Positions 19,340 to 37,264 of a DNA stretch of 60,233 nucleotides are shown piece by piece. Origin of the DNA: Sedimentisphaerales bacterium (lineage in GTDB: Bacteria > Planctomycetota > Phycisphaerae > Sedimentisphaerales > Anaerobacaceae); NCBI GenBank assembly GCA_049509315.1, contig JBELAA010000001.1:1-60233 (forward strand), read 5' to 3'. How positions within the stretch are numbered: position 1 is the first letter of the stretch; the number at the start of each line of letters is the position of its first letter. The position numbers were made by a program, and so were the translations under genes. The notes beneath the pieces are model-generated. The model saw only the letters and a list, made by a program, of their open reading frames with translations. It ran no database searches and was not told the origin of the DNA.

Positions 19340-22300
19340 CTATTCCTCGTCCGCAGGTGTTGGTGGTGGCGTTTCGACCGTCGGCGCCGCTCCTTCGGTG
19401 ACTTCTTCTCCGAACGATCCGTGGTATATTTTCAAGAAATTATTATAAACCTCTTTTCTCTCCTGGATGGCACGATTATAGGCGTCCTTGTCGACCGGGT
19501 CAAGCGATTTATAGAATTCATGTTCCCGGGCCTTGGATCCAGTAAAGGGGTGTTGCAGCCCTATTTTAAAGCCATGAGCCAGCTTTTTTATTATTGTTCC
19601 ACGTGTAACATCGGGCTCCTTTTTCTGTTCCACGGCGACCACGCGCTGCCATTCCTTCGATGCTTTCTGCAGGTTTTTATCCTGAAGGGCATTCCTCACA
19701 TCCCGGTATTTGCTGATTGGATAGGTGCCCTGGTCCGGCTGTACTTCGTGTTCTTTGCGCCACGCCTCGGCCTTAAGGTAGATTTCCGTCGATTTTGAAT
19801 ACCGTGCGACCTGAAGGCCCATGGAGGTAAGTAACGATTGCCACCAATCTATGTCTTTATTCCCCTGTTTTATCATGCGCGAGAGCCCTATTGGTATCCA
19901 AGTAAGCAATTCCTCTTCAAGAAATTGCCATGCGCTTTGCGGCTGACCTCGAAAGTCTCGGTGAGAGAGCATCCAATGGACCGTCTTCCCGAGAATGGGC
20001 GACATACGGCCGGATATAAACTGGCTGGTGTTTTTAAATAATTTCCACATATCTTCTGGTACAGAGCGCAGGCCGTATTTGCGGTTTTTATAAACAAAAC
20101 TGAATGGTTCTTCGAAATGATAATCGCCGTGTCCAAAGTCCTCGCCACCAAATAGCTTATTGAGCACTCTCGCGCCGACCCAAAAAAGCACAGCAAGGGT
20201 TGTAAGTGCCATCAGCTGCTCGCGGCCGTTCTGGTGGTCCTTGGGGGTTTTGCCGGTTATTTTCCTGTATACGTCTTCCGGCAAAGTCGCAATGGATTTT
20301 ACCGCCTGACCGGCAAAGCGGGCCCGGGCTTCAAGAAAATCCGGCGCAAGAAATACCGATTGCAGGAGGTGTTGGATCGTTTTACTGCGGCCCATGTCGA
20401 TGTAGTTCTGGTGTCCGAAGGCGGCGTTTGTCTGCCGGGCCGAAAGATACTCTATATCGTCGACCGATCGTTCTCCGGATTTTATCATCCGGTCGTATCG
20501 TTTTATGTTGCGGGCCAGCATATTATTATAAACCTTGTATTTCAGGCCCGGAATATACCAGGTAAAAAGAGGTTCGCTTATTGCTTCCAGCATGGGGCCG
20601 GCGACCGGTAATTTATAAAGAATCGGCCCGGAAGAAAGCCCCTCTCTAAAATTCTGCATACCATCGTAATCCGCAATCATCATAAGTCCATGTGCGGCCG
20701 CCCGATAGTGTAATGGATTATTAACAAGGTCTATTTTATCAATTCCGGCAAAGGGGTTAGTCCAGTGACCAACGGCGTGTGTTCCCTCTTGGACCCAGTG
20801 AAAACCAGACAAGCTGAACATTGATTGCTTTGTTCCGGATTGAATGAGGTCTGCTGTCTTTATGACATCACGCACAGTACCCATAATCGGCGGCAGCTCT
20901 TTCCGGTACCATTCGCGGATAGCGTCAGTGCCAAGCACATTTTGCAGGTGACCGGCAACGTCGGGGTGTACCGCAAGGTTGCCCTGATACATCACCTTTT
21001 CGCCGTTATCTGTTGTGGAAACATACTTCCAGTCCATCATGGCTGGATGTTTGACCGGTAGATAGTCCTCGTACTGCTTTGCAAGGCTACGGGAACGGAT
21101 GAGATAAAACGGTTTTTTCCCAGGTTCTTCCGGTATCACCTTATCGCCGGACCCCATCGGCATGGCAATATGGCGGCCGTCCGGCATGAGGGTGCTATTC
21201 AGATTTGCAATAAAATCGCGTGTTTCAATGGTTTTCCCGAGTTCATAAATGTAAATACCCAGCAATTCGCCTATCTTTTTTGTCTGCGGTTTATACCCGA
21301 GCTGCTCGGCTTCAAACAGGGTGGGGATAGTCCTCTCGCGCCCGAATTTGAAATTGAGCGCCAGCTTGCCGGAAAAGCCCGCGGGTTTATCGCCTTCCAT
21401 ATCAACAAGGTGGGTGACGTAGTTGTCCCTGATTTTGTCGACGAGGTCCCGCTCCTGTGCCTGCTTTCCCAATGCTGAGTATTTATCGGATACCCAACTG
21501 AGTATTTCCTTGTCTTTTTCGTTTAATTTTAAAGCAGCCTCATAACCCTCGACCACCTTGTGTTTTATCATCCATTTACGCTGGTCGTCGTTTTTGGTGT
21601 TTTTAATCAGGTCTTTGGTTTTCTGTAATTGATACCGAATCGTTTCCTCGTCCCCCTGCGCTTCAAGGTATATCGACAAAGCCTCTTCTTTCGTTGGGTC
21701 CTTTTCGAGCTCGTCCTTCACGTACTTTTCAGCCGCAGTCGCGTATTGCGACCATTTCTGGACGTTCGCCTGCCAGGTTAAAAGAGTCTTTTTATAGGGA
21801 GTGTATGCCGGCGTTTTTGCTATCTCATTGTAGAGGTCTTCAACCCGCCGGGCGATCTTCTGGCCAATCGTGCTCTGTGGTATCGGTACCGGGCCCAGCG
21901 GTGCGCCGCGCATGTCCTTCATCTCAATATTCGTTTCCCCGAATATCTGGTCCAGGTCCTCGCCCTCCCCACGGACTTCACCATACGGCGGGCGCCCCTC
22001 TTCAACAATAGCACCCCGTTTCCCTTCGGCTTCTTTTCTTAGCGCATTCATAAAATTATCGTTTGCGGAATCCATATCCCCGCGACCACCGAGCTCGAGG
22101 TCTTCCCCGACCTCTTTTATATACGTATCTATTGCCTCTGAAAATTCCGGGGATGGAAAACCGTCCTCTGCGATGCGTCGGGCTTCCTCAAAAACATCCT
22201 GTTCGGTCAGATAATTTCCGTTTTCGTCGCCATCGTCGTACTTTTTAAGCACATCATTTAACTCTGTCTTGTATTCGTTGTACCCGTACGGCGGCTGATT

Positions 22301-25300
22301 TTCTTCGACAAGCGCAAGATTTTTCTTGTAATTACCACCACCAAACCGTATATTTAAAGATGAAGGAGGTTCTATGTTTTCTTTTGACAGTGAAGAAGCC
22401 ATGGTTTCGCGTGAGTCCTCAACCTGCCGCGTTTGGGTCCGCCTGGGCGACTCTTCACTTATAAGGTCTGTTGACGGCTTCTGGACCGTGGATAGTCCCT
22501 CTGCCGGGGAAATATTCATTCCGGTCGTTTCCAAATCGGAAGTCTCGTCGCTACTGCGCGAAGCTCTTGCCGCCGCCGTTTCAATGCCGGTGCTTTGATC
22601 GTAAGGTGCCGGTTCATCCCAGACAAACCCGGATTTATATGCATCTGGGCCCCTGTAGGTCAACGAGGGCCCCATATTTTTCTCTGTTATATAATTATCG
22701 GGTTCCCTTCCTTCGTAAACAACATCTAATAAAACATCGTCTTTTTTAAATCCCTGGCTCCTGTAAATTTCTCTAACCTCATGAACAAATTTTTCTGCGT
22801 CGGGTTCCCCTCTTGTGTTGCTGGCGACAACAATAGAAACGGTACCCCCAGCGTTCTGCTGGTTCTGGTAAAGCGTTTGTTTGTGCAGTGTAACACCCAG
22901 TCTCAACGGATACCAAGCGGTGATTTTATTTCTATTATCAAGAACAACTTGGACCGCCTTAACGCCCCTCTTCATTACGCCCTTTACCGCGTCTACGACC
23001 TCGTTGTGGCCGTATATTTTTACCGTCGGTAAGTCGTATTGTTTAGCTGGGACGTATGTGTATTTGCCTTTAAAGTCTCCATTTTCATTTATGACCGCGT
23101 ATTCCGTACCATTGATTACAATGTGCGCAACAAAACCCTTACCGAGTGTGTCGCTGTATTTTCTTGTAAGAGCCAAGTCGGCGTAAGATGGTGTTGGATC
23201 CCCACCCGGGTGGTTGTGGACCATAAATATTTTATTTGCCCCAAGACGCTCCATTCTGTTTTTTACCCGATACATTGATCGGGCAAAATCGTCGGCATCT
23301 TCAACAGCCTTACTTTGATTGGCAAGGCCGGCCGACATGGTATTGTGGGCGACTATCTCGTTTTTATTATTTACATAAATAAGGTGAACGTGTTCTATGT
23401 TCGGATGACGGAAAATAGAAAATAGTTGGGCTATTTCCTGCGGCGACGTTACAACCTTGCCGGTAAAATCTATCCTGTGCAACTTGTTCCAGCTGGCTTC
23501 AATAATACTTTGTCCTGCCCGACCGACTCCCCGTACGGTGCCCTTGGTTCGACTATAAGGCCGCCCCGGAGTTCGCTCCCGTCCGGAAACTTCTGGCTCC
23601 GGTACGGCGGACGAAGTTCGTTTTCCTCGTCTAATCCCAGGTCGGTTTTCTTCTCTGATTCCTGCTTCCGGTACCTCCGCGGGCCGAATGTTCCGTAAGG
23701 TTTCCCTGACCTGTCGGTTGGTTTCATTGAGCGCCTCCATACTGCCGAATGTGGCATTAACGTCTTCCGCCGTGTAACCGAGATCTTCGGGCTTAAACAA
23801 ATCAACCTGCTCAGTCGCCCGGGCCTCCTGCTCGTTTTTATCAAATAGTGGCGTACCTTCGAGCGGGTTCTCACGCATAATTTCTTTTCTGGCTTCTGCC
23901 CGCCGTTGTTCCTCTTCTGCGATCTCCCGCTGACCCTTGGTCCGCGTGTCCTCGAATTCCGTACCCTTAAACAGGTCGGGGGTTTCGCCATAAGGCGCCT
24001 GCGACTCTTCAACACCTCCCGATCCTGCCTCGACCCTACCCTCCGCGTCTTCCTCGTTGACCGGTTCTATGGCCTCACCGGTAGGTATAAATGCCCGTTC
24101 CTTCTCCCACCTGACCGGTTCATCCTCCGGCTTTATTTCCTCTTCCTTGTGGTCTGCAAGCACCTTGTCGAGTTCGTTCATCCGGGCTTTCTTCTGCGCG
24201 AGCTCGTCGGCAAGGGTAAAGGTAACATTTTCCTTTGCTTTGTCGTCTTCAAGGTTTTTTTCCTGTTCGGCCACGGCCGCCTGCTCGTTCTTCAGGTTCT
24301 GGTCCATCCGCTTGTATACTGCGTCGTGCAGGCTGGCAACAAGCCCTATGGGCGAGCGGCTCGACGGGCTTAACTGCCCGACGTAGTTGTATTTTCCATT
24401 CACTACAATTTCGGATATCGGCCCTTGTACTCCGAACACCTCGCCGGACGTTGTTACGGCGCCGGCTTTCCGTTCCGGCATATACCAGCCAAGTTTTGTA
24501 CGGGCGGAAATATTAAAACCTGCAAAGCGGCCGATATTCTTCTGCTCTTCGCCGTTGGAATTTCTGTCCTTCATTTTCTTTTCAAGCGCGGTAATAACTT
24601 TAAGCAGCGCAGCCCCGGCTTCGGTCCGCTTATCGTACGTCTTCCCGTCGACGAATATCGAAAATTGTTTCTCTTCAGACGGCGCGGCGCCGGGTTTAAC
24701 CTCGACCGTTTTCTCAGGTTCGCGCTGTGTGACATCGGCCTTATACGCGGCGATATTTTTATTCAAGCGTGCAATGCGCTCCGGTATTGCGCGTATTTCC
24801 GCCTTGTGGTGCGAAATATCGTTTATGTGTACCCGTTCGAGATTTTCGAGCTCCTTTACCCGGTGTCGCAGCGTCATGGCCTCTTTCATTATCGGGTCTT
24901 CGATGGAAAGGTCTTTGACGCTCCCGAAATAATCTTCTTCGATCTCATCCTGCAGGTCTTCGGGCCTGGTGTCCATTATCGTGTTGATCGACTTTGATTT
25001 TACCTCGAGCATATTCCAGATACCGGTATCAAGGCTGCCCTTCGTAACGTAGTTATAGATTTCTACGGTACCGAGTTCACCCGCAGGTGTGGTCCTCTTT
25101 CCATTCTCATCAAAGTCCACCACCTTATTGCCCTGGCGGACAAACCTGCCATTTGACTGGTCATAATCCCGCGGGCGCCATCTGGCATCCAGCTGGTGTA
25201 CGGCCTTCCCATGGTCCTGAACATTCACGCCGACACCAAGTTTTTCTACACTGCCGAAAAGCACCCTTACCTTGCCGGATCGGACGGCATCGAAGAGCTG

Positions 25301-28300
25301 TTGTTTCGGGGCCTCTTTATCATACTTCGGGTTTGTTATATCGACGATTTCTTCCTGGGGGATCCCTCCGGCAACAAGTTTCTTTATCATATCGGCGGTA
25401 GCGTCGAACGTCATTACGTCTTCTCCGCCCGGGCCCTTACGATATGATCTCGGCCGATCGATAAAAACAAGCTGTGTGTACTTCTGGTTATTGTACTTTT
25501 TATATGTTTCGAGGATGTTGCGTACTCCCTGGTTCAGCTTGCTGTCTGGCAGGTCCGGAAGGTTCGGGCTGAACAATCTCAGGTCAAGCGCAGCCTTCTT
25601 GCCGTCGTCGATTATCACCAGTACATTGTCTGCGCCCTTTTCCGCTCGCTGGCCTTTAAGCCCCTTTTCCCTTCGAACAAGGTACCGCTTAAACGATTTC
25701 ATGAGGTCGGAGGCCGGCGCCGCTATGTTTATTACCTTCTCCAGCGGAAGATTTTTACCCGGTACCAGTATGCCCTTGTCCTTCAAATAGTTGTTTGTCT
25801 TTATGTCCCATACTTCCCGCAGCGCCTTCATGAATTCGGGTACGTTGGTAAGCCGTGAAAAGCGAGTGGTCGGCCGGTATGCGGACCCGCTGTTGTCGAG
25901 CTCCATCTCCGTGACCGTATCGGCAAACAATCTGCTCCAATCGTCAAAACTTTCTATATTGTTTTCATGCAGCCAGTCGCGCTGCAGATACTTCATCATG
26001 GAATATGCTTCAACGAGCGAGTTGGATATCGGGGTACCTGTGGAAAATATCAGGCGGGCGCCCTTGCGCGTCAAATACTTCGATTTATGGAACATATCAT
26101 AGGAGCGGCCGGACCCCATAGGACTACCCATGCCGCGGACGCCTTCGAGGGCGGTATAGTATTCGAGGTTTTTAAATTCGTCGGCCTCATCGATCGTAAG
26201 GAAGTCAATACCAAGGTCCTCAAAATAGAGCGTTCCCCGTTCTTTCCGCGCCTTATTGAGTAACCCCTGTCTTTTCTGTTTGTACGACTCCAGTTTCTTC
26301 TCGAGCTGCTTCACCGAGCGCGGTTTCTTTTTCTTACTGCCGAAGCTTTCGTTGGCGTGTTCCGTTTCGTATGCTTTGAGATAATTTTGGTATTGATTGA
26401 TTTCTTCCGATATCTGCTCCGCCTCTTCCCTGGGGGACAGTGGTATCTTTTTAAAGTCCTCGCGTTTTATCAATACGGCGTCCCAGTCGCCGGTGGCTAT
26501 TTTATTGATAAATAGCCTGCGTTTATCCGGCGACAAGTCGCCTTCATTTGCCACCAGTATATTGGCATGCGGATAGGCGGAATAAAAATCCGCCGTCCAC
26601 TGGCGTATTAACTTGTTCGGGAATACGTGCATTGGCTTCTTTGCAAGGCCAAGGCGCCGCGCTTCCTGACCGGCCCATATCATTTCAAGGGTTTTACCGG
26701 ACCCGACCCCATGGGCGAGCATGGTGTTTTTGTTCTGGATAATCCGCCATACTGCGTCCGCCTGGTGGATACGCGCCGGCCATGGGAATGAACTGCCGGT
26801 AAAGAACACCTGTGCGCTGGGGTCCTTTATTCTCTTCGGGTGGATGTATTCACGGTTCACGAACGCATTAAAGCGGTCGTTATAGTCGCGCACAATCCGC
26901 TCTTTCCGTTCGTTGTCCGACCATAGCCATTCGGTAAACTTCTTCTTTATCTCGTCCGCCCGGGCCTGCGCTGCCGCTGATTCCTGCTCGTTGAATACCT
27001 CTTTTGCGTGTCCTGGGTCGTCGGGTAATGGATCGGATACGGTATCATAAATCTTTGGCCGGCGACCGGCCATGAGTTCGCGCATGATCTCAATGCCGTT
27101 CATTCTCGGCGTACCGTATGTTTCTTCGACGAGCCGGGAATTATAATACCCACCTATTTTAATGTCCCACTGCCCGTTAAAGCTATTGTGGTTTGCGGAA
27201 ACATTGTTTGCGCCGAACGTGTCCTTCAAAAACTCTTCAATATCGGTGTGCTGCAGTAGTGGCGAATTCATCCGTACGGATATCCGCTCCGCAGGTTTAT
27301 CCGGCGGGATTATTGTTTCGAGTTCGCGCACGTTCAGGTCGAACATCCGGTATTTTTTTGCCGCTTCTTTTGCCTTTAACAGCTTCTGACGTACGTTTCC
27401 GGACAAATACTCGTCTCTTGACTGGTATAATTCGCGCTTGCCGTTCAAATAATCTTCCGGGCTGCGGAATACCAGCCTTTCCGCCAGAAGCTTGTCGACC
27501 GTTGCGGGGCCGTCCATGCCGAGCATGTCAGCTATACGGTGAATATTGACCGACCCGTATTGATTGAGTGAAACAATGAGCGCATCCTGCGCTGAGTCGG
27601 TTTTCTCGATCGCCTTATCGCGGGTGAAAGAATAACCCTTAAAAATAGCTGTCTTTTTTGCGGTGTCCGTCTGGTCGTCGTAGTTTTCAAGTGCTGCGAG
27701 TTGGTACCGGGCCGGGTCCTGTTTTATCAGGTTGAAAGTGCGCTTGTTATTTATCGGGCCGTGCTTTTTTACAAAAGAGTCGTATGCGGCGTTGAGTTTT
27801 GCAAGGTATTTCTTCGATTCGGCGCCCTCTTCGAGCCTTTCAGCATCAAACATTTTCTGCATGATGCTCTTAATCTCGGCCATCCGGTGTATTTTGTCGT
27901 GATTTTTACCCTCCGGCACCTTGTTGACGAAACCAGTTTCTGGATTTTTCTGGTAGAGCACATCCTTTTCAACAAAAAACGACCCGGGCGCCATGCGCTT
28001 AATATCTTCCGGCTGGTCGAATTCATCGAATGACACATGAAGGTTGTTTTCATCGACATACGGTGTAACAATGTCCTTTGGAAATTTATCTGCAGCGTTA
28101 AAAAGCATTTCCTCGAACTGTTCGTGAGTGACCGCCGGGTCAAGTTCGACGGTGTACTGGTCGCCGCCGTACCTGGTACCACCGAGCGTCGGTTTTCCCA
28201 GCACCATTTCTTCGTGGTTCTGAAAATATTTATTAACAAACATATCTTTCTTGCCGCCGGCCTTCGGTGCGTCCATGGATACGGCGCCGGACTCTACAAA

Positions 28301-29944
28301 CAACTTACTCATCTCAGAGGGCGGCTGGTTCGGGGCCCGCTTCTGCAGGAAAATTATATCGGTGACCACCTCGGTGCCGGCGTTCTCCTTGAATGCGGTA
28401 TCAGGCAGCCGGACCGCCCCAATAAAATCTGCCTGTTTTATTATCGCCTGACGTACGGATGGGTTTTTCTTGTCCATCGTGTAGTGCGACGTTACAAAAC
28501 CGAGAAGTCCTCCGGGACGCAGGCCGTATAATGATTTCATGAAGTAAAAATCATGGAGCGCCATACCCTTGGGTAGATCCGGCGTTGCGGCGTCCGACGG
28601 TTCAACCGGCGATATTTCGCTGAAGGGAACATTTGATAAAATAAGCTGGTAATAGTCTTTCGGCATCTTCAGGGTTTCGTAACCCTGTATCTGAATTATG
28701 GCGTTCTGGTAGAGCTGTTGGGCGATACGTCCGGATATCGGGTCGAGCTCGATACCTTCCATGGACATATTAAGGGATGTCGGACGCAGGCCGAAAAAGT
28801 GTCCTATGCCGGTCGCCGGTTCGAGTGTCGGGCCGCCGTTAAAACCCATGCGCGTAATGGCGTTCCATATCGATTGAATGACCGCCGGGGAAGTGTAGTG
28901 CGCGTTTGTGGTAGATGCCCGGGCCGCAGCGTATTCTTCTTTAGTGAGTAATCCCTTCAATTCATCGTGGGCGATGTTGGATTCTTTAAAGGTCGCGGAA
29001 AGCCCGCCCCATCCGACGTAACGGACAAGCGCCTGCTGCTCTTCCGGCGTGGCGTGACGGTTTTCGCTTTCGATCTGTTTGAGGATTTTTATTGCATTAA
29101 GATTATCTTTCAGTTTTGCGGCCGGTCCACCGTGCCCGATGTTGTCGGCTTCCTGAATAAGATAATCTATAAGGCGCTGTTTCTTCCGGCCCTCTGGGGT
29201 ATGGTCTATTAATCTGGGTTCATCTCCGCGGCTTCCCCTTGCCCCTCCGTCGCTTCCGGCAGCCAGAGATCCCGTTCCGCCACCTCCTCCGCCTCGTTCG
29301 GATACATCCCGTACTTTACCAGCTGGTGTTCCTGTTCGATCTCCCGGTCGCACGCCTTCTGTACCGCCTGGTGTAACTCCCCCTTCTTCCGCAGGTTGAG
29401 CACGTACTGGGGCTGCGCCTTCGCCCACTGCTGCAGCACCTCGATCTCCCAGCTGGTCAGCTCCTTCCGGTCTTCCGGCAATATTGGTGCCGGTTCCTGC
29501 GGCGGCTGGCTTTGCGGCTTCGGTCGGGGCGGCGGCGCCGGCCTTGGGTTCGGCGGGTCGTGCGGGAATCTTTGTAGGGGCGGCATGTTCGCTTGGGCCT
29601 GCAGGTTTTCCTGCTGCTGGCTCTGCTCCGGTAGCTGGCTTTGCGGGGAGTTGTTCGGGTTCGGTTCCACGTTTACCTTCTTCCGGTGGTTTAGTGGTGG
29701 TAATTACCTCTTGTCCCTTCCCTTTAATTATACCTGTTTCCGCAGGAGATATCAAGGGTTTTATTGTTTTTATTTTGTTCTTCGCGGCTGCCGGGGTCAG
29801 GAGTGTACGGGCCTGTTCTATGGTCGGAAGGCCCGCGCCCTCATGTCTTACAAACGCGACAAAGGCCCGTTCCGGTCCGAATGTCTTTTCGAGTTCTTTG
29901 TATTCAGGCGCGTTTTTATTCGGGCAATGGATTTTTACAGGCAT
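19340..29944 (-). CDS. Giant polyvalent protein (3534 aa): N6-adenine MTase + SF2/SNF2-like helicase + RadC/JAB + C-terminal membrane module
   Basis: Uninterrupted 10.6-kb ORF. MTase motif I LEPATGIGHFFG and motif IV SNVPFS (about 28330-29190). Helicase motifs AHGVGSGKTLEM, IDEADEFKN, STGTPISNS, NGRFVRQGN (about 25000-26790). RadC/JAB motif HNHPGGDPTPSYADL (about 23080-23420). TM helix LMALTTLAVLFWVGARVL near 20170-20215. Confidence 0.9.
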   Translation of the reverse strand: MPVKIHCPNKNAPEYKELEKTFGPERAFVAFVRHEGAGLPTIEQARTLLTPAAAKNKIKTIKPLISPAETGIIKGKGQEVITTTKPPEEGKRGTEPEQLPAKPATGAEPAAGKPAGPSEHAAPTKIPARPAEPKAGAAAPTEAAKPAAAGTGTNIAGRPEGADQLGDRGAAAVGEGAAPVRAQPAEEGGVTPGGTEGVRPGDRTGTPAGKVRDVSERGGGGGGTGSLAAGSDGGARGSRGDEPRLIDHTPEGRKKQRLIDYLIQEADNIGHGGPAAKLKDNLNAIKILKQIESENRHATPEEQQALVRYVGWGGLSATFKESNIAHDELKGLLTKEEYAAARASTTNAHYTSPAVIQSIWNAITRMGFNGGPTLEPATGIGHFFGLRPTSLNMSMEGIELDPISGRIAQQLYQNAIIQIQGYETLKMPKDYYQLILSNVPFSEISPVEPSDAATPDLPKGMALHDFYFMKSLYGLRPGGLLGFVTSHYTMDKKNPSVRQAIIKQADFIGAVRLPDTAFKENAGTEVVTDIIFLQKRAPNQPPSEMSKLFVESGAVSMDAPKAGGKKDMFVNKYFQNHEEMVLGKPTLGGTRYGGDQYTVELDPAVTHEQFEEMLFNAADKFPKDIVTPYVDENNLHVSFDEFDQPEDIKRMAPGSFFVEKDVLYQKNPETGFVNKVPEGKNHDKIHRMAEIKSIMQKMFDAERLEEGAESKKYLAKLNAAYDSFVKKHGPINNKRTFNLIKQDPARYQLAALENYDDQTDTAKKTAIFKGYSFTRDKAIEKTDSAQDALIVSLNQYGSVNIHRIADMLGMDGPATVDKLLAERLVFRSPEDYLNGKRELYQSRDEYLSGNVRQKLLKAKEAAKKYRMFDLNVRELETIIPPDKPAERISVRMNSPLLQHTDIEEFLKDTFGANNVSANHNSFNGQWDIKIGGYYNSRLVEETYGTPRMNGIEIMRELMAGRRPKIYDTVSDPLPDDPGHAKEVFNEQESAAAQARADEIKKKFTEWLWSDNERKERIVRDYNDRFNAFVNREYIHPKRIKDPSAQVFFTGSSFPWPARIHQADAVWRIIQNKNTMLAHGVGSGKTLEMIWAGQEARRLGLAKKPMHVFPNKLIRQWTADFYSAYPHANILVANEGDLSPDKRRLFINKIATGDWDAVLIKREDFKKIPLSPREEAEQISEEINQYQNYLKAYETEHANESFGSKKKKPRSVKQLEKKLESYKQKRQGLLNKARKERGTLYFEDLGIDFLTIDEADEFKNLEYYTALEGVRGMGSPMGSGRSYDMFHKSKYLTRKGARLIFSTGTPISNSLVEAYSMMKYLQRDWLHENNIESFDDWSRLFADTVTEMELDNSGSAYRPTTRFSRLTNVPEFMKALREVWDIKTNNYLKDKGILVPGKNLPLEKVINIAAPASDLMKSFKRYLVRREKGLKGQRAEKGADNVLVIIDDGKKAALDLRLFSPNLPDLPDSKLNQGVRNILETYKKYNNQKYTQLVFIDRPRSYRKGPGGEDVMTFDATADMIKKLVAGGIPQEEIVDITNPKYDKEAPKQQLFDAVRSGKVRVLFGSVEKLGVGVNVQDHGKAVHQLDARWRPRDYDQSNGRFVRQGNKVVDFDENGKRTTPAGELGTVEIYNYVTKGSLDTGIWNMLEVKSKSINTIMDTRPEDLQDEIEEDYFGSVKDLSIEDPIMKEAMTLRHRVKELENLERVHINDISHHKAEIRAIPERIARLNKNIAAYKADVTQREPEKTVEVKPGAAPSEEKQFSIFVDGKTYDKRTEAGAALLKVITALEKKMKDRNSNGEEQKNIGRFAGFNISARTKLGWYMPERKAGAVTTSGEVFGVQGPISEIVVNGKYNYVGQLSPSSRSPIGLVASLHDAVYKRMDQNLKNEQAAVAEQEKNLEDDKAKENVTFTLADELAQKKARMNELDKVLADHKEEEIKPEDEPVRWEKERAFIPTGEAIEPVNEEDAEGRVEAGSGGVEESQAPYGETPDLFKGTEFEDTRTKGQREIAEEEQRRAEARKEIMRENPLEGTPLFDKNEQEARATEQVDLFKPEDLGYTAEDVNATFGSMEALNETNRQVRETLRNIRPAEVPEAGIREENRPGIRRGKRTSSAVPEPEVSGRERTPGRPYSRTKGTVRGVGRAGQSIIEASWNKLHRIDFTGKVVTSPQEIAQLFSIFRHPNIEHVHLIYVNNKNEIVAHNTMSAGLANQSKAVEDADDFARSMYRVKNRMERLGANKIFMVHNHPGGDPTPSYADLALTRKYSDTLGKGFVAHIVINGTEYAVINENGDFKGKYTYVPAKQYDLPTVKIYGHNEVVDAVKGVMKRGVKAVQVVLDNRNKITAWYPLRLGVTLHKQTLYQNQQNAGGTVSIVVASNTRGEPDAEKFVHEVREIYRSQGFKKDDVLLDVVYEGREPDNYITEKNMGPSLTYRGPDAYKSGFVWDEPAPYDQSTGIETAAARASRSSDETSDLETTGMNISPAEGLSTVQKPSTDLISEESPRRTQTRQVEDSRETMASSLSKENIEPPSSLNIRFGGGNYKKNLALVEENQPPYGYNEYKTELNDVLKKYDDGDENGNYLTEQDVFEEARRIAEDGFPSPEFSEAIDTYIKEVGEDLELGGRGDMDSANDNFMNALRKEAEGKRGAIVEEGRPPYGEVRGEGEDLDQIFGETNIEMKDMRGAPLGPVPIPQSTIGQKIARRVEDLYNEIAKTPAYTPYKKTLLTWQANVQKWSQYATAAEKYVKDELEKDPTKEEALSIYLEAQGDEETIRYQLQKTKDLIKNTKNDDQRKWMIKHKVVEGYEAALKLNEKDKEILSWVSDKYSALGKQAQERDLVDKIRDNYVTHLVDMEGDKPAGFSGKLALNFKFGRERTIPTLFEAEQLGYKPQTKKIGELLGIYIYELGKTIETRDFIANLNSTLMPDGRHIAMPMGSGDKVIPEEPGKKPFYLIRSRSLAKQYEDYLPVKHPAMMDWKYVSTTDNGEKVMYQGNLAVHPDVAGHLQNVLGTDAIREWYRKELPPIMGTVRDVIKTADLIQSGTKQSMFSLSGFHWVQEGTHAVGHWTNPFAGIDKIDLVNNPLHYRAAAHGLMMIADYDGMQNFREGLSSGPILYKLPVAGPMLEAISEPLFTWYIPGLKYKVYNNMLARNIKRYDRMIKSGERSVDDIEYLSARQTNAAFGHQNYIDMGRSKTIQHLLQSVFLAPDFLEARARFAGQAVKSIATLPEDVYRKITGKTPKDHQNGREQLMALTTLAVLFWVGARVLNKLFGGEDFGHGDYHFEEPFSFVYKNRKYGLRSVPEDMWKLFKNTSQFISGRMSPILGKTVHWMLSHRDFRGQPQSAWQFLEEELLTWIPIGLSRMIKQGNKDIDWWQSLLTSMGLQVARYSKSTEIYLKAEAWRKEHEVQPDQGTYPISKYRDVRNALQDKNLQKASKEWQRVVAVEQKKEPDVTRGTIIKKLAHGFKIGLQHPFTGSKAREHEFYKSLDPVDKDAYNRAIQERKEVYNNFLKIYHGSFGEEVTEGAAPTVETPPPTPADEE

Positions 29945-29946
29945 GG

Positions 29947-30312: not shown

Positions 30313-30317
30313 TCCCC

Positions 30318-30722: not shown

Positions 30723-31980
30723 AGTAATTAATCCCGAATTTTGCCGATTTTGCTATCTCGTCTTCCGCTTCATCCAAAGAGTCGGGGAATATATCTATAA
30801 AGTATCCCGTAACGCTCTTCGCTACCTTCTTTACCATATCGATCGCCGCCTGCAGTGTGTCGCCGTAACCGACCGCGGCGCCTATCTCCGGCAGGCCAAG
30901 CGCCTGCGGTATAACGTAGTACCGGTCGTCGACCATGGCGGCGTTTCGCAGTTTGATAAACTGGCGGTTTTCCGGGGGAAAGTCGACCGGCTGCCAGTTC
31001 TTATCGGCCCAGCTCGAGTGTATCAGCATCTCCGCGCCGAATTTAGCGACCGGTACCGGGTCGACAAGGATGCCGTTACCGCCCGCCCATATAATTTCCG
31101 CAAGGTTCTTATAGTTTTCCTGGTAAAGCTCGCTCGGTGGGGATCCGGCCCGGGCGCACATATCGATCATAACCGGCTTTTTGTCACCGCCGACGCGCAG
31201 CTCAGTTGAATAAAAACCTCGATATCCGTATTGTTTGAGTGTCGGCGCCAGCGCTTTATCAAAATCGGTAATAACGGCCGGCAGGTCCTTATACTGTTTG
31301 AATATTCCGATGTATCCCTTATCTTTAACCTCTATTCCGGACATCATCTGGGAAGGGAATTTTCCATCAATTGAATAAGCGTCGAGGCCAACTTCAACGA
31401 GATCCGGCAGGTCGTCTTCAACGATAAATTCCATGATATTTTTAAAGGCGCCGAGCTGGTACGCGAGTTCGTCCAGCTTTGGTTCAACCTCCTTAAAATC
31501 CTTCGAGAAGAAGGTTTCCATCATGCCGCGCCATTTATTGATTTTCACCCATTTATTGTTGTTGGATTTAAGATATTCCCGCAGGGCATTAATCCCCTTT
31601 ATCTTTATCCACGGTTGGACCGGCAAGCCAAGGCTCTTCATGAGATTCTTCATTGAGTCGCGGTAAAGCTCCATCTCCTCGCCCATCCTTGCGCCCCACA
31701 CGGCCTTCCCCTGGCTTTCGAGCCATACCTGCATCTCGCCGTAATAAACGTCAGGAAATACCCAGAGGTCGACCTGGTTGAAATAAGGCCATGGGGATTC
31801 AACAACCTCGATATTTTCCAGTCCTCTGCCTATCCAGGCTTCGTGCATCCGCGGGAAGGAGTTCGGCCAGCCAAGGACGCAGTAATAAACCTTCTTGTAT
31901 TCCCGGGCCAGGCGGACCGCTATCTCGACGAAGATCCCGTTATCAATCACCATGGCCACTACGTCTTTCACCTGCTTCAT
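30664..31980 (-). CDS. ATP-grasp-like (PurD-like) ligase
   Basis: Start set at MKQVKDVV (ATG 31980, ATGA overlap with the upstream stop). The overall layout (VIDNG...; WVKINKWRGMMETF; STELRVGGDKKPVMIDMCARAGSPP) recalls ATP-grasp carboxylate-amine ligases. Not motif-proven. Confidence 0.5.
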   Translation of the reverse strand: MKQVKDVVAMVIDNGIFVEIAVRLAREYKKVYYCVLGWPNSFPRMHEAWIGRGLENIEVVESPWPYFNQVDLWVFPDVYYGEMQVWLESQGKAVWGARMGEEMELYRDSMKNLMKSLGLPVQPWIKIKGINALREYLKSNNNKWVKINKWRGMMETFFSKDFKEVEPKLDELAYQLGAFKNIMEFIVEDDLPDLVEVGLDAYSIDGKFPSQMMSGIEVKDKGYIGIFKQYKDLPAVITDFDKALAPTLKQYGYRGFYSTELRVGGDKKPVMIDMCARAGSPPSELYQENYKNLAEIIWAGGNGILVDPVPVAKFGAEMLIHSSWADKNWQPVDFPPENRQFIKLRNAAMVDDRYYVIPQALGLPEIGAAVGYGDTLQAAIDMVKKVAKSVTGYFIDIFPDSLDEAEDEIAKSAKFGINYFETNAQPENKPEDVTAQAA

Positions 31981-34900
31981 GCCGCTTCCTTTATCGAAAA
32001 GGTGTTCTGCCCGCCCATGAGTTCTTTGCAATACACGCGCTGGAGATACTCGTCTTTCGTTTCCCCGACATCCTTAAGAGCGTTTTTATCGTAAGATTCG
32101 TTAAAATCTTTTTCAGTCGTGAAACCCGCCTGCTTCCAGCCGAATTCTTCTTCCTTTTCCATTTCGGCGGGTGCGGCCGCAGGCGCAGAAACGGCCGTCG
32201 TTTCTTCTTCCGGCATCTCTTCCGGCGTCCGGCGACCCTTTTTAAACTGCTCCACCGCCTTATCGTACAATTTCATGCGCGGATCGTCGAGCTTGAAATA
32301 TCTGACGTTACCGTCTTTATTTGTCAATTTCCATACAACCTGCTTGACCCCGTTTACATCTTTCGTTATCTGCTTTTTATAGAAAAATCCCCTGTCGAAA
32401 ACGAGGGATTCCATCTGGTTTTTAATTACATTTTCTTTACCGGCCTCTCCAAGCCTCCTCCCGGGCGACTGGGATTCTTCTGGCGTAATAAGGCCGAGTT
32501 CTTTTTTTCGCGATTCAACCTCTTTCGCTATGGGGTGGTCTTTTGGAATTACAACTTCGTTGCCGACGCCGTCGTCGAGGCGGATGTATTTTTTCCCGCC
32601 CTGTATGACCGTTGGAGTATAGATAGCTTTACCTTTATCTAACACCTGTTCATCGACGTATTTTTTTACACGTGCCCTATCGGTTACTTCCGGCAATCCA
32701 GCGGCTGGTGGTATTGGTGTTTCGGGCGGTTTTATTTCGCTTCCGCGCACGACCGGAGGAAGTCCCCTTTTTTTTGCGAGTTCTGCGTAATGTGCTTCCT
32801 CTTCGCCTTGCTGAAACGGAAACGCCTCAGATTTATCTGGTTTTACAACTTCGAATGGGTGGGGCGCTTCCTGCAATTGGCGGGCAACATCTTCAAAATC
32901 AGTAAAGAGGTCTTTGGGTATGCCGGTTTTATTCCGCAGTTCTTCCGCTTCGGTTGATTCGTTCCAGTAGTCGTATATGTCTTTAACGAGGGCGTTTGAT
33001 TTATTGGTAAGGACGATTGTCCTGCCCTTATTGTCCTTTGTCTTTTTGCCCATCAGGAAGTCCCATTGTTCCTGACCCTTCGGCTGGTCCAGCACTTCTT
33101 TTCTCAAACCGGATTTTGTTGCGCGGAGCCATAAAGCGGTATTGACCTTCGGGTCGTCCCCGAAAGTCTGCGGTTCGCGGCCTTTACTTGTGGGTTTTAG
33201 TTCGCCTGGTGGGGTCGGAGCGACGGCGCGAGAGACTTCAGTACGTCCGGGTGAAACTGCTCTTCCGGATCCGGCGACGGGCTTTCCTGTCGCGGTCGCA
33301 GGTTCGGCGTTCTCCGGTAAATTTCCTCCTGCTCCGGGCTTCCTTCCTCGAGGTTGTAGTTCCTCCGTCCGGAGGCCAGTAATCGGTCGATTTCCTGTAT
33401 ATTCATAATACCTTCCATCTACCGATACGCCACTTTTCCCGGCTTCCTTCGATTTGTAAACTTGTGCGTCGGCGGCATCGTACCCTGCGCCATGGCCCGA
33501 AGAAAATGTGACGCCGCGGAGGGGGCCCTTGTCGGTGTCGAATGTTGTATTTGCGAGTTCCTCATTTGCCCTTCTCTCTATATTAATTATACTCTGTGCG
33601 TCAAGAGATTTCAAGGGAAATGTTGCAATTTCTTCGCCTCCGATACGCACGACTTTTGCCTTATCGCCATACGCTTTTTGAAGGACATCCGCAAATTTTT
33701 TTAATACCTTGTCACCGACCGGATGGCCGTAGGTGTCGTTTATAGACTTGAAATTATCAAGATCGTGTATTGTCTGGTCAGCGGTCCTTATGTCGATATT
33801 GTCCTTAACGAGCGTGTTGCGGTTTCCAAGGCCGGTCAGCTGGTCGGTGTATGCCAGCTTTTCGAGGTTTTCATAGTGTTTTTGTTTTTGATCGGGAGAT
33901 AAGGCATTGAATTGACCGGATGGTATGGGTGTTTCCCCTTCGGGTACTACCGGCATCTGCTGGGTTTCTCGCATTGCCTGGTCGACCGGGGCCTCTTTAG
34001 GCGCCTTCCTTATCTCGTTTATCCTTCCCTGCTCATACGTGTTGAGCTTCGGGTAGATCTCCTGCTGGCGGGCTTCCGGCAGCGCCACAAAGCCTTCCGG
34101 ACCTTCAACCCCAAGTGATTGTAGGGTATTCATGCCCTGCGGCATTTCCGGGGGTGTTGGCCTTGTCGTTCCGGTTTTAGGTGTTTCTGTTCCAGAAACA
34201 GGTCTTTTCGTTTCAGGAATAGGGGTAATCGTTTCAGAAACGGGTGGTTTTGGTACTGGTGGTTGTTCTGGTACCGGTGTGGGTTTTGGTACCGGGGCAG
34301 GAGGCGGGGTGGCTGGCCCCGCTTCCGGCTGTGGTTCCGGTGCTGCACCTGCCTTTGTCTTGCCTGCGGCTACCGACTGATCAAGCGTTGCCTTCGTCCT
34401 GTTGTAATAATCGATGTACCGCTCGCCCTGGACCGGTGCCAGCGCATCGATCACATCGTTGGGGATTGCTCCTTTAAATGCTTCCTTCAGGCCCTTATAG
34501 AGAACGTCATTTCCAAATCTGTTGCCGAATTGTTCGTAGTTCTCGTTGGGTTTCGGTTTGTTTGAATTCCAGTCAAAGTCGCGGTATTCCTTAAAACCAC
34601 CGTATTTTTGGATTGTTTCATCGTAAAGTTTTGCGGCCGCGCCGTAGGTTTTACCCGTCAATCCGTACCCAAAGCCCTGCGCAAAGTTACTTATTATGTC
34701 CGATGGGCTTGCTCCCTGGGCCGCGGCCATGCCGCCGAAAACGCTACCCTGTGCTATACTCTGGGCCACCCGCTGCGGTATCGCGCTCATCTTACCGGTG
34801 ACCATCTCGGCGCCCTTACCTGCCGCAGAAAAAGCCGCCATCTGAGCGCCGGTCACCGCTCCCTGTTTTACCCTTTCCTTCAATCCCCCATCACTGGTTA

Positions 34901-35846
34901 CAAACCCTTGCTCAAAACCAGAAACAGTATTTGCGATTGTTTTTTCAACATCGTCGGCGGTTATAAGTTTCCCACTTTTCTTTGCAGCTTCCGATACCGC
35001 CTTCTGTATTATCGGCTTCATTTCAACCAGAGCGGTGGGCCCATATTTCTTTGCGAAGGCCCCCATTATCGCTCGTGCCTGCTCGCCGCCTCCGGTCGCA
35101 ATCATGGTGGGAAGGAATTCGCCCAGCATATCAATACCACCAACAAACGCCGCGCCGGCGGGTCCGCTGCGCTGGTATGTCTCTTGTTCTGCTGGATTCG
35201 GCTGGTAAAAATCAGTGAGTGTCTTCCCGGCTTTCGTCAAGGTGTTGTGGTAATCGGCAGCTGCCTTACTCACCTTGTCCCATACCGGCTTATTGGTCTT
35301 TTCCCCGAGCATGTCGGCAACATAGCCGAAGTTTTCAGCCGCATCGGCTGATACGCCGGTAACAAGTTTTCCTATATTCGCGTATCCCTTCGCCACCTGT
35401 TTGATTGCATAGGTACCGAGGCGGTCCTCGTCTTTTTTCGTCCATTCTTTCGCAACGGCTTTAGGCGGCGGGGTGACGGGCAAAGTCTCTTCCGGCACGG
35501 GCATTTTCTTTGTCATTCCCAATACCCGCGCAGGAGCGTTTGCTGCGAGTGGTACGGGTTTAGGCACTTCTGGAAGTGGGGCTGGCTGTATGTCGGTGCG
35601 CGTCGATACTGCCGGCACGGCAGTCATGACCGGCATTGATACTGGCGGAATCTGAACATTCAGCGGCGGCTGGGGTGTGGTTGTTTTGGGAGGTTTTGAA
35701 TTGAGATGATCTGTAATATCCGATACGCCATAACCCTCCGCCATGGCGCCCGAGTAGTCAAAATCAGGGCGTGTCTTTTTAAGATGGTCGAGAATATCGA
35801 CATCACTATAACCCTCTTGTTTTGCTCCGTTATAATCAAACGCCAT
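31977..35846 (-). CDS. Large internal-virion/ejection-like protein (1289 aa) with embedded GGDEF domain
   Basis: Duplicated N-terminal motif (DYNGAKQEGYSDVDILDHL / DYSGAMAEGYGVSDITDHL). A Gly/Ala-rich hydrophobic region and Pro-rich linkers. GGDEF domain at about 33440-33860: DQLTGLGNRN...DLDNFKSINDTYGHPVGDKVL...VRIGGEEIA...ADAQVYKSKEAGKSG. Confidence 0.85.
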   Translation of the reverse strand: MAFDYNGAKQEGYSDVDILDHLKKTRPDFDYSGAMAEGYGVSDITDHLNSKPPKTTTPQPPLNVQIPPVSMPVMTAVPAVSTRTDIQPAPLPEVPKPVPLAANAPARVLGMTKKMPVPEETLPVTPPPKAVAKEWTKKDEDRLGTYAIKQVAKGYANIGKLVTGVSADAAENFGYVADMLGEKTNKPVWDKVSKAAADYHNTLTKAGKTLTDFYQPNPAEQETYQRSGPAGAAFVGGIDMLGEFLPTMIATGGGEQARAIMGAFAKKYGPTALVEMKPIIQKAVSEAAKKSGKLITADDVEKTIANTVSGFEQGFVTSDGGLKERVKQGAVTGAQMAAFSAAGKGAEMVTGKMSAIPQRVAQSIAQGSVFGGMAAAQGASPSDIISNFAQGFGYGLTGKTYGAAAKLYDETIQKYGGFKEYRDFDWNSNKPKPNENYEQFGNRFGNDVLYKGLKEAFKGAIPNDVIDALAPVQGERYIDYYNRTKATLDQSVAAGKTKAGAAPEPQPEAGPATPPPAPVPKPTPVPEQPPVPKPPVSETITPIPETKRPVSGTETPKTGTTRPTPPEMPQGMNTLQSLGVEGPEGFVALPEARQQEIYPKLNTYEQGRINEIRKAPKEAPVDQAMRETQQMPVVPEGETPIPSGQFNALSPDQKQKHYENLEKLAYTDQLTGLGNRNTLVKDNIDIRTADQTIHDLDNFKSINDTYGHPVGDKVLKKFADVLQKAYGDKAKVVRIGGEEIATFPLKSLDAQSIINIERRANEELANTTFDTDKGPLRGVTFSSGHGAGYDAADAQVYKSKEAGKSGVSVDGRYYEYTGNRPITGLRTEELQPRGRKPGAGGNLPENAEPATATGKPVAGSGRAVSPGRTEVSRAVAPTPPGELKPTSKGREPQTFGDDPKVNTALWLRATKSGLRKEVLDQPKGQEQWDFLMGKKTKDNKGRTIVLTNKSNALVKDIYDYWNESTEAEELRNKTGIPKDLFTDFEDVARQLQEAPHPFEVVKPDKSEAFPFQQGEEEAHYAELAKKRGLPPVVRGSEIKPPETPIPPAAGLPEVTDRARVKKYVDEQVLDKGKAIYTPTVIQGGKKYIRLDDGVGNEVVIPKDHPIAKEVESRKKELGLITPEESQSPGRRLGEAGKENVIKNQMESLVFDRGFFYKKQITKDVNGVKQVVWKLTNKDGNVRYFKLDDPRMKLYDKAVEQFKKGRRTPEEMPEEETTAVSAPAAAPAEMEKEEEFGWKQAGFTTEKDFNESYDKNALKDVGETKDEYLQRVYCKELMGGQNTFSIKEAA

Positions 35847-35860
35847 TTCCTACCCTGTTT

Positions 35861-37264
35861 CTACGGAGTATCAAAACTGGTTAATGGTCTTTTCGGTCGT
35901 TGCGGATAAATGGGATTCGGGGCCGGTTCGTCAGGAGCGAGCGTCGGCAAGGCGACCGGTTCCGACCGGTTCGGGCTGGAATATTTTTCCAGTTGTTTAT
36001 CAATGCCGGGAAGCTTGCTTTTTATTGTCTGAATGTAACCATCCAGCTCCTGCAGCCTGTCCATGAGTGCCGCGGGATCCTGTGGAAGTTTCTCGTTAAG
36101 CGAACCCTGGTTCACGTTCATTGCAATTTTCAACTGATTGTCGAGGTCGTTGTACTCCTGCAGGGCCTTGTGTAGTTGCGCAAGGTTGGTAACCGAGTCC
36201 TTACCGTACGCCCTGCGCATCGTAGCATTAAACTTCTCCTGGTCCAACATGATTTTTAAAAGAGAATTGTTCTGTTCTTTTTCGCGCATCTGGTCGTATC
36301 TCACTTTATGCGCGAGTGCGTCCTTCTTCGCCTGCTCGTCTGCAATGTCCTTTTCGCTCAACATACCGCCGGCCGCTTCTTTTACTTCAGGCGTCAGTGG
36401 TATACCCTTACCGGTAACGTCCCTCATGAATTCGGTACGACGACGCGGCGCGGGTCCTGGCGTAACAAGTGCCGACGCTTCCCGGTCGGCAATTCCGGTG
36501 AGAATAGGTTCGAATTCTTTTTTCTGTTCCTGTGGAAGATCGGCCGCAGTTACCCTTTCCCGCGCCGCCTGGAAGGATATCGGCTGGTGCAGGCCGGGCT
36601 GTGCTTCCGCAAGTGCTGGCGGTAACGGTTGGTCTGCCGCTGCCTGTGCCTGTGGTGTCGGCGCCGGTTGGACCGGCCCGGCTTGGCCAGCGGGAAGTGT
36701 AGGAGGTTTTGCGGGCTGTGGTTCGGCAATGCCGGCAATGCGATTGTACTCATCCTGAGAAATATTTGTCCGGTGCTTCCGATTAATATCGTCGAGCGAC
36801 AATACGCCTGCCTTTATGTCGGCAATACTGTCCGCCGGTGGCGCTGGAGGCGCAGTAAGTTCCTGCTCGAGCTGTGTACCGGTCCGCTTGTAGATAAGTT
36901 TTTGAACATCCGGAAGCGCAAAACCTGGGATCGCCACTGCCTGCCGCAGTTCATTTGGGTCAACCCCAGCGGTTTTCAGCTGGTCAACAAGCGTCGGCGC
37001 TGCCTGTTTCAATCGTTCCACGTATTGGGGGTTCGGTTCGTTCGGTTTCGGTTCGAGGCCGTCTAATTTTACGCCGCGCACACGTCCGAAAAAGTCCTTC
37101 ACCTGGCCGAATACCTGCTGGTTCTGAGCATCGTTGGCCCGTTGTATCTTCTGCTCTCCGACCGCCTGCTCGACGTTCTCAATACCTCCCGATACATCCT
37201 GACCTATACGCGAAACGCCAGCTGTAATCGGCTGCATACCGGTCTGATAATTATAGGTATCCAT
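35861..37264 (-). CDS. Internal-virion-like protein (Pro/Gln/Ala-rich, coiled coil)
   Basis: 467-aa ORF within the run of large structural-type genes. Confidence 0.55.
   Translation of the reverse strand: MDTYNYQTGMQPITAGVSRIGQDVSGGIENVEQAVGEQKIQRANDAQNQQVFGQVKDFFGRVRGVKLDGLEPKPNEPNPQYVERLKQAAPTLVDQLKTAGVDPNELRQAVAIPGFALPDVQKLIYKRTGTQLEQELTAPPAPPADSIADIKAGVLSLDDINRKHRTNISQDEYNRIAGIAEPQPAKPPTLPAGQAGPVQPAPTPQAQAAADQPLPPALAEAQPGLHQPISFQAARERVTAADLPQEQKKEFEPILTGIADREASALVTPGPAPRRRTEFMRDVTGKGIPLTPEVKEAAGGMLSEKDIADEQAKKDALAHKVRYDQMREKEQNNSLLKIMLDQEKFNATMRRAYGKDSVTNLAQLHKALQEYNDLDNQLKIAMNVNQGSLNEKLPQDPAALMDRLQELDGYIQTIKSKLPGIDKQLEKYSSPNRSEPVALPTLAPDEPAPNPIYPQRPKRPLTSFDTP

Follow-up and report, generated by a model that had tools for sequence, protein, structure and literature searches.

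The window analysed here, a 60,233-nucleotide stretch of contig JBELAA010000001.1 (assembly GCA_049509315.1, Sedimentisphaerales bacterium), is a phage-like block with nearly every long open reading frame (ORF) on the minus strand. One ORF of its structural region encodes a 1289-aa protein carrying a GGDEF (diguanylate cyclase) domain that retains its catalytic and GTP-binding residues and lacks the product-inhibition site (I-site). With modest confidence, we favor the view that this is a polyvalent or ejection-type protein packaged into the virion, and that its tethered GGDEF domain makes cyclic di-GMP (c-di-GMP) free of product inhibition upon reaching the cytoplasm. The gene was first singled out in a reading of the DNA sequence and its translations (hereafter the original prediction), which placed a near-complete GGDEF domain at window positions 33440-33860, within an ORF at 31977-35846. 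Both placements hold: the ORF exists on the minus strand, all four motifs quoted from it (DQLTGLGNRN, DLDNFKSINDTYGHPVGD, VRIGGEEIA and ADAQVYKSKEAGKSG) are found in the translation, and the domain covers aa 661-809, or nt ~33420-33866.

The identity of the domain is supported by profiles, structures and a model. Pfam GGDEF (PF00990) matches aa 665-800 with E=3.5e-20 and 72.8 bits (gathering score 23.8), NCBIfam TIGR00254 matches aa 661-809 with 75.3 bits (cutoff 37.4), and 48 solved GGDEF chains show a sequence match to it. GGDEF is the sole Pfam-recognised domain of the 1289-aa protein, with no Pfam match elsewhere in the chain, and the PHROG matches are all to uncharacterised GGDEF-containing families. 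The HMM search and structure prediction proposed as checks thus both came out in favor of the domain: an AlphaFold2 (AF2) monomer model of aa 630-830, built from an 11-sequence alignment, folds as GGDEF (pLDDT 87.4, pTM 0.80), and every one of its top 50 Foldseek matches in the PDB is a GGDEF-domain protein, in nearly all cases a diguanylate cyclase (probability 1.0, E down to 1e-12, target-normalised TM up to 0.73). The best of these were DgcR, DgcB (including 6ttr, a coiled-coil plus GGDEF structure), 3ign, SadC, PleD, WspR and DgcZ; the fold matches also include 6d9m, which we take to be a Hypr-GGDEF structure. Outside phages, the nearest GGDEF sequences are ~30-35% identical. A compositional sign of recent acquisition was sought in GC content overall and at third codon positions (GC/GC3), and none was found (0.47/0.50 for the GGDEF segment, 0.515/0.517 for the whole gene).

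We next aligned the domain with the GGDEF sequence of PleD, after checking this reference against the PDB. The roles of the PleD residues in binding metal, phosphate and guanine are established by structural work. PleD D327, K332, N335 and D344 correspond to D695, K700, N703 and D712 of the window protein, R366 to R734 ahead of the active-site loop, the loop G368-G369-E370-E371-F372 to G736-G737-E738-E739-I740, and K442 and R446 to K800 and K804. Substitutions at the metal- or GTP-binding residues would have spoken against the original prediction; none of these residues is lost relative to PleD, and the change of F372 to Ile740 is the only non-conservative active-site difference. Asp712 is kept at the D344 position, where the Hypr class that makes cyclic GMP-AMP (cGAMP) has Ser, and this argues for GTP specificity. 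The absence of an RxxD I-site, also noted originally, is borne out by the alignment, in which G727-D-K-A730 stands at PleD R359-A-I-D362, so that c-di-GMP synthesis would not be throttled by its product. The domain is also compact, with helix alpha1 ~8-11 residues shorter than in bacterial enzymes and a shortened segment before the last helix. A modelled 16-residue helix directly ahead of the domain (residues 22-37 of the 630-830 construct) could possibly serve as a stalk or dimerisation helix.

From the N-terminus the 1289-aa protein comprises a duplicated motif, a Pro-rich stretch, a Gly/Ala-rich region, a second Pro-rich linker, the GGDEF domain, a third linker, a ~100-aa domain and a small, internally duplicated C-terminal domain. 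Most of the features originally described for it are real: the two copies of the N-terminal motif align with a score of 68 (shuffles 17.8 +/- 4.1), and a composition scan recovered Pro-rich linkers at aa 51-130, 501-570 and ~830-890. The supposed Gly/Ala-rich hydrophobic region is indeed Gly/Ala-rich (aa ~225-400), but no stretch of the protein reaches transmembrane-grade hydrophobicity in the same scan. The C-terminal duplication is supported by self-alignment (score 54; shuffles 27.4 +/- 4.8), and this domain matches aa 1060-1248 of the giant relative P0018 (phmmer iE 3e-7). The Gly/Ala-rich region belongs to a larger N-terminal module (N-module), for which AF2 gave an all-helical model of low confidence (pLDDT 47) that was not used for fold searches. 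Tandem duplications analogous to that of the window protein occur at the extreme N-termini of its relatives P0003, P0019, P0004, P0017 and P0015, are dissimilar between lineages, and in P0015 flank a lytic transglycosylase (SLT) domain; the duplicated motif might be a packaging or targeting signal.

Homologues of the protein are rare. A word-indexed search returned the protein itself, a fragment (P0002), and P0003 (1796 aa), P0004 (2005 aa) and P0005 (1747 aa), all three very large proteins with a GGDEF domain on phage contigs; P0003 is 34% identical to the window N-module across aa 90-396. With aa 100-500 as the query against 1.84 billion representatives, phmmer yielded only 10 proteins, of 817-4827 aa. 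The N-module lies near the N-terminus in 9 of them (full-length, 1065-4827 aa), the tenth being the 5'-truncated P0002. Besides the N-module, these relatives carry SLT and LPD38 (P0015), SLT and GGDEF (P0016), GGDEF-like and LPD38 (P0019), SLT (P0021), or GGDEF-like, Zeta toxin and SNF2 domains (P0018, 4827 aa), LPD38 being a "large polyvalent protein associated domain". Profile A2 places a GGDEF-like domain after the N-module of the window protein, P0002, P0003/P0014/P0016, P0018 and P0019; the match in P0017 is weak (34% probability, GGDEL loop), and hidden GGDEF domains were sought in P0015, P0020, P0021 and P0022 and none was found.

Searches of further collections added little to this family. 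Among 50,697 phage records, tblastn gave no match for the portal or the N-terminal 400 aa, and the full 1289-aa protein was matched via its GGDEF domain only. Scans of IMG/VR and JGI metagenomes with the 1289-aa protein recovered no close relative, and a scan with an N-module alignment (A1) recovered the contig of P0003 only; a search with a 9-sequence N-module profile gave no match, the Gly/Ala-rich words having probably saturated the candidate list. When used in the host search, alignment A1 gave one weak match, on a contig of a Planktotalea metagenome-assembled genome. tRNAs were also sought, and none was found.

In the window, the GGDEF gene belongs to a late/structural block confined to one strand, where it comes after the genes for portal, tailspike and fibre; this block also holds the terminase and a DarB-like gene. 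An AGG-rich ribosome-binding site precedes its ATG, and its TGA stop shares an ATGA overlap with the ATG of the next gene; the ORF is therefore a member of a tightly packed operon. On the contigs of P0003 and P0005, the big gene is the last large gene of the structural block, after fibre-type genes (Collar/Gp10_C, and an SU10 adaptor in L004) and just before lysis genes (lysozyme or VanY); the 10.5-kb contig of P0004 has no annotated neighbours. Related genomes carry podovirus-type markers (SU10 adaptor, P22-like portal, DNA polymerase A). A tape measure protein was considered and ruled out, since the big gene of the relatives is the last structural gene before lysis, in podovirus-type genomes. 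The T7-like layout of the original prediction fits only loosely: the big internal-type proteins of the window follow the tailspike genes, a gene order different from that of T7, and sequence homology to T7 gp14/15/16-type families was not detected in Pfam or PHROG. The P0005 phage also encodes, at 18918-24847 of L004, a TROVE/VWA (Ro60-like) protein, a Tad3-family protein and an integrase.

A connection to virion proteomics runs through P0003. Its C-terminal ~650 aa resemble phrog_22602, a "virion structural protein", and are matched in tblastn by large proteins of Cellulophaga phages phi18:3, phi13:2 and phi19:3, Pelagibacter phage HTVC027P and Pseudoalteromonas phage vB_Pun_Y3. The phi18:3 protein, gp123 (1935 aa), is annotated in its record as a virion structural protein from tandem mass spectrometry (MS/MS) proteomics; both the N-module and the GGDEF domain are absent from gp123. 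The chain of evidence for packaging leads from the window protein to P0003 by the N-module and GGDEF domain, and from P0003 to gp123 by the C-terminal domain. In addition, two hallmarks of polyvalent proteins are present, namely a large protein in a virion/packaging gene context, and modules in common with SLT-, LPD38-, Zeta-toxin- and DarB-like SNF2-bearing proteins. Delivery of the 1289-aa protein with the DNA thus appears well supported but indirect, and the original assignment to virion or ejection-type proteins stands as a class by homology to SLT-, LPD- and DarB-like giants. Three kinds of C-terminal domain occur in the N-module family (P0003/gp123 type, giant/P0017 type and LPD38 type); a kinship among them was rejected (hhalign probability <1% for all pairs), and they match no other window ORF except for that of P0017, which matches a giant protein. 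In vB_Pun_Y3 (L015, record 24147-37521), a ~3400-aa ddrB-ParB giant is followed by a 1027-aa "ADP-ribosyltransferase" whose C-terminal 600 aa resemble the virion-type domain of P0003 and which lacks GGDEF. As a cultured phage, vB_Pun_Y3 could serve as a tractable model of this protein family.

The giant protein in question is the 3534-aa product of a nearby window gene, which matches phrog_10089 ("DarB-like antirestriction", E=0) and Pfam RadC and SNF2, with a RadC-like JAB domain at aa 2166-2288. P1 DarB is a classic anti-restriction enzyme that is packaged in the capsid and injected. In P0018, a single chain holds an N-module (~ window aa 57-454), a GGDEF-like domain, a region like window aa 1029-1233 and a Zeta-toxin kinase, and its aa 1674-3279 match aa 97-1703 of the 3534-aa protein (E=0). 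P0017 similarly joins an N-module to a region (aa 1443-2297) resembling aa 2627-3506 of the 3534-aa protein. These fusions suggest that the window phage makes from two genes what its relatives make as one polyvalent protein.

The GGDEF domain lies in a variable part of the gene. On the contig of a close relative (L007, encoding P0002), blastn aligns aa 357-652, aa 1034 to the end and the next gene at 70-81% nucleotide identity, and gives no alignment for the central cassette of aa 653-1033, comprising GGDEF and the following ~100-aa domain. The corresponding slot of L007 holds a GGDEF-like domain that is below the Pfam threshold (E=0.0013) and has the loop N-I-H-G-D-E-Y. Domains of this HGDEY type, with the loop [NH]-[IL]-H-G-D-E-Y, are found at L007 1145-2398, P0019 aa 428-595 and P0018 aa 770-926; they have lost the equivalents of R366 and G368 and keep the metal- and base-binding residues. 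The HGDEY type is conserved rather than decayed, because it is common to P0002, P0018 and P0019. In the survey of homologous phages that had been proposed as a check on conservation, GGDEF recurs in related giants and its canonical form is swapped for HGDEY in a close relative.

Beyond this family, a pattern scan of IMG/VR identified 78 viral loci with GGDEF, with a median enclosing ORF of 459 aa. For four of these loci (3 distinct), the enclosing ORF measures 1000 aa or more, namely L021/L022 (at least 2895 aa; GGDEF and ddrB-ParB), L071 (2772 aa; LPD22, ART-PolyVal and GGDEF) and L092 (1245 aa; GGDEF). Together with P0003/14/16, P0004 and P0005, GGDEF thus occurs in large proteins of at least 6 further phage lineages. 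The GGDEF domains of large phage proteins share a shortened alpha1 and a shortened C-terminal segment, and RxxD is absent from 7 of 7, while it is present in 3 of 6 bacterial sequences in the same alignment. These seven compact domains may form one clade and so not be independent.

The original prediction regarded a cyclase delivered with the genome as an undescribed phage strategy, which does not stand. Iyer et al. 2017 (Iyer, Burroughs, Anand, de Souza, Aravind; J Bacteriol; PMC5512222) reported polyvalent proteins of phages that contain GGDEF and RelA/SpoT domains, predicted that these proteins enter the cell together with the DNA, and proposed the same functions as the original prediction had listed. 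The window protein is a further member of this computationally described kind, within the 2017 prediction, and a literature search on GGDEF with ejection, internal virion or virion proteins retrieved no experimental study of a virion-delivered cyclase. What is new here is the recurrence of the domain within one N-module family of podophage-type giant proteins, its compact form without an I-site, the exchange of canonical for HGDEY cassettes, and the split-versus-fused relation to the DarB-like protein. To our knowledge, neither the compact I-site-less form nor the canonical/HGDEY swap was described by Iyer et al.

Taken together, these results favor the following scenario. The 1289-aa protein would be produced alongside the structural proteins, become part of the virion, and enter the cell along with the DNA; the N-terminal helical, Gly/Ala-rich module would act as a conserved delivery or anchoring part, and the compact GGDEF domain, held by the Pro-rich linkers, would arrive in the cytoplasm. 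In that compartment, GGDEF copies would pair and convert 2 GTP to c-di-GMP and, with the inhibitory RxxD site missing, the infected cell would receive a pulse of c-di-GMP ahead of phage gene expression. Candidate consequences are an arrest of motility, a change in receptors or surface polysaccharides, and a disturbance of nucleotide-based immunity. Should the protein prove to be both injected and active, the phage would be raising host c-di-GMP ahead of its own gene expression, and this would add a new layer to host takeover. Motility, biofilm formation and surface polysaccharides are all under c-di-GMP control. Since some c-di-GMP-regulated polysaccharides are phage receptors, e.g., the c-di-GMP-dependent N4 receptor glycan (PMC8669472), the enzyme could affect superinfection and spread in biofilms, and possibly nucleotide-based immunity. 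For experiments, the analysis supplies a minimal domain (aa ~640-830), seven compact I-site-less domains, and a natural canonical/HGDEY cassette pair.

Several points weigh against this reading. The presence of the window protein in virions is deduced via relatives rather than from direct evidence, and the protein lacks both the P0003/gp123 C-terminal domain and SLT, which are the relatives' links to virion proteomics; homology to T7-type core proteins is likewise lacking in Pfam and PHROG. Catalysis by diguanylate cyclases requires dimerisation, for which the helix ahead of the domain is only a candidate element. The activity of a domain with a Phe to Ile loop change and a trimmed alpha1 is only predicted, and the HGDEY domains in the same slot of L007/P0002, P0018 and P0019 suggest a conserved function of this slot that may go beyond c-di-GMP synthesis. 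Finally, the host searches gave no host (TerL had 0 matches among 185,579 genomes), and the favored reading presumes a host that uses c-di-GMP.

The cyclase could instead be active in the producer cell during late expression, at a time of high protein abundance, imposing sessility or a surface change against superinfection, with packaging irrelevant or absent. We consider this unlikely. Free-standing, non-virion phage cyclases are known (Bacillus SP-15, phage G gp350, Bordetella CN1/LK3), most of the 78 IMG/VR loci are of ordinary size, and the window protein is without the SLT and MS-linked C-terminal domains, all of which would fit such a role. However, a cytoplasmic accessory enzyme would need no 640-aa N-terminal module or Pro-rich tethers, and the other modules of the protein recur in DarB-like, SLT- and LPD-bearing giants.

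GGDEF enzymes that make cGAMP or cyclic di-AMP exist (Hypr-GGDEF GacA), and the domain could be an active nucleotidyltransferase whose relevant product is not c-di-GMP. It might make another (oligo)nucleotide, cyclic or linear, or a decoy able to jam the cyclic-oligonucleotide-based anti-phage signalling system (CBASS) or type III CRISPR. The canonical guanine-reading residues N703 and D712, and the lack of a Hypr-type Ser at the D344 position, make this improbable, even though a hypervariable slot with a canonical/HGDEY swap on an otherwise 70-81% identical backbone is as expected for arms-race effectors, and its partner modules, whether neighbouring or fused, are of the anti-restriction kind. 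Iyer et al. (PMC5512222) also proposed that the nucleotide signalling of the host is interfered with. A separate, tentative proposal, which we regard as possible if doubtful, is that the compact feedback-free GGDEF is an old exchangeable module of one family of injected proteins, serving second-messenger synthesis at DNA entry, and that the alternation of its canonical loops (GGEEI, GGDEF) with HGDEY on nearly identical backbones reflects an arms race with host nucleotide sensing, the HGDEY form perhaps making a different, undescribed nucleotide.

It is quite improbable, in our view, that the GGDEF domain is mainly non-catalytic, i.e., a GTP-binding, oligomerisation or structural element of an ejection complex derived from an ancestral fusion. 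About half of the family has a GGDEF-like domain after the N-module, degenerate forms included, and the HGDEY (P0002, P0018, P0019) and weak GGDEL (P0017) variants suggest a role that survives the loss of R366 and G368. Yet every catalytic residue is kept in the window protein, which is unexpected without selection for catalysis, and the HGDEY form itself, with its metal- and base-binding residues conserved in three distant proteins, points to an enzyme. An artefact, in which a bacterial cyclase fragment was misassembled into phage sequence or a host gene was recently captured without a role, is scarcely credible and was rejected, as the domain is in frame within the central part of a 3870-nt ORF with both flanks homologous to phage proteins, its GC/GC3 is unremarkable, and the same architecture is seen on independent contigs. 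We thus retain a packaged, feedback-free diguanylate cyclase as the favored reading of this gene.

The features of the gene and its closest partners are listed below. The three upstream genes encode candidate internal or ejection proteins; a similar gene-size pattern precedes the big gene in L001 (602/110/389 aa) and L010 (572/122/446 aa), and a 480-aa gene precedes P0018. A comparison of the three window proteins with loci L001-L008 detected no sequence similarity.

Table. Features of the GGDEF-containing gene and associated genes, in window coordinates.
Feature	Coordinates	Strand	Basis
Whole gene: polyvalent/ejection-type protein (predicted) with GGDEF domain, 1289 aa, ATG start	31977..35846	minus	ORF list and translation
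Duplicated N-terminal ~20-aa motif, FDYNGAKQEGYSDVDILDHL and FDYSGAMAEGYGVSDITDHL, aa 3-22 and 29-48	35703..35846	minus	Local alignment
N-module: helical, Gly/Ala-rich, aa ~90-455, common to giant phage proteins	34482..35579	minus	Homology, A3 alignment
Pro-rich linker, aa 500-570 (20 Pro in 50 residues, aa 501-550)	34137..34349	minus	Composition scan
Helix preceding GGDEF, 16 residues, aa 651-666	33849..33896	minus	AF2 model, helix H22-37 of 630-830 construct
GGDEF (diguanylate-cyclase) domain, aa 661-809	33420..33866	minus	Pfam, TIGR00254, PDB sequence matches, AF2, Foldseek
Active-site loop G736-G737-E738-E739-I740 (GGEEF, Phe to Ile)	33627..33641	minus	PleD-numbered alignment
Variable central cassette, aa 653-1033: GGDEF and following ~100-aa domain	32748..33890	minus	blastn against L007
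Small C-terminal domain, internally duplicated, aa ~1060-1205	32232..32669	minus	Self-alignment; common to P0018 aa 1060-1248
Partner gene: 3534-aa DarB-like polyvalent protein, SNF2 helicase, methylase, RadC/JAB	19340..29944	minus	phrog_10089, Pfam
Three upstream genes, 740, 116 and 467 aa	35861..39920	minus	No Pfam/PHROG match

Several other window genes, all on the minus strand, deserve mention. Three small genes lie between the GGDEF and DarB-like genes (29947-31980; 438, 134 and 121 aa): the 438-aa gene is ATGA-coupled to the GGDEF gene, and its product has no family match and reads as possibly ATP-grasp-like, while the 121-aa protein is AdoMet-decarboxylase-like (PF02675, E=4.5e-12), and these genes may be involved in polyamine-related chemistry. 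A modification-type cluster at 2513-10204 includes a C5-cytosine DNA methylase (2513-3532), two paralogous ~330-aa proteins (3529-5471), one with a weak GT2 match, a radical SAM enzyme (5808-6815), a 633-aa protein with GT2, FkbM methyltransferase and Methyltransf_24 domains (6812-8713), and a DUF5131 protein (9590-10204). The tailspike-like protein (42057-44993; 978 aa) ends in a K1-lyase_C domain (PF24146, E=4.7e-20), and its gene has a GC content of 0.459 and GC3 of 0.419, below those of its neighbours, which suggests a receptor-binding protein that degrades capsule and was exchanged recently. A 1303-aa protein (46169-50080), encoded between this tailspike and the capsid-region genes, has two matches to DUF3383 (E=2.7e-21).

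Among known systems, the closest are the polyvalent proteins that Iyer et al. described from phages and conjugative elements. The window protein resembles them as a large multi-module protein whose gene lies among those for the virion and for which injection is predicted, with GGDEF alongside modules that elsewhere join DarB-like SNF2/methylase, ART, Zeta-toxin, SLT and LPD domains. Iyer et al. cite a prophage protein that combines GGDEF, SNF2, methylase, metallopeptidase and ART domains (PMC5512222). Unlike their Acetonema example and unlike P0018, each a single fused chain, the window encodes GGDEF and the DarB-like protein as separate genes with three small genes between them, and the GGDEF protein has one Pfam-recognisable domain only. 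With the bacterial cyclases PleD, WspR, DgcZ, DgcR and DgcB, the domain agrees in fold, in the residues that bind metal, phosphate and guanine, in the GG[DE]E signature and in having a helix ahead of it; it differs in lacking a sensory or receiver domain and RxxD, in its shorter alpha1, in having Ile for Phe, and in being embedded in a phage structural-module protein. Packaging is proven for P1 DarB and T4 Alt, and the window protein is predicted to be, like them, an in-virion enzyme that acts in the new host at time zero, although its activity would be second-messenger synthesis and not DNA methylation/translocation or ADP-ribosylation. As with T7 gp16, it is a large protein in the big-gene run of the structural module, and its relatives P0015, P0016 and P0021 carry an N-terminal SLT domain as gp16 does, whereas the window protein has no SLT and no sequence homology to gp16 (Pfam, PHROG), and its core-type genes come after the tailspike. 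Free-standing phage cyclases (Bacillus SP-15 and G, Bordetella Vojvodinavirus, Pseudomonas Yuavirus), which in Bordetella siphoviruses are tied to hyper-biofilm lysogens, are also phage-encoded GGDEF proteins, but these are small or ordinary accessory proteins expressed in the cell rather than modules of giant proteins.

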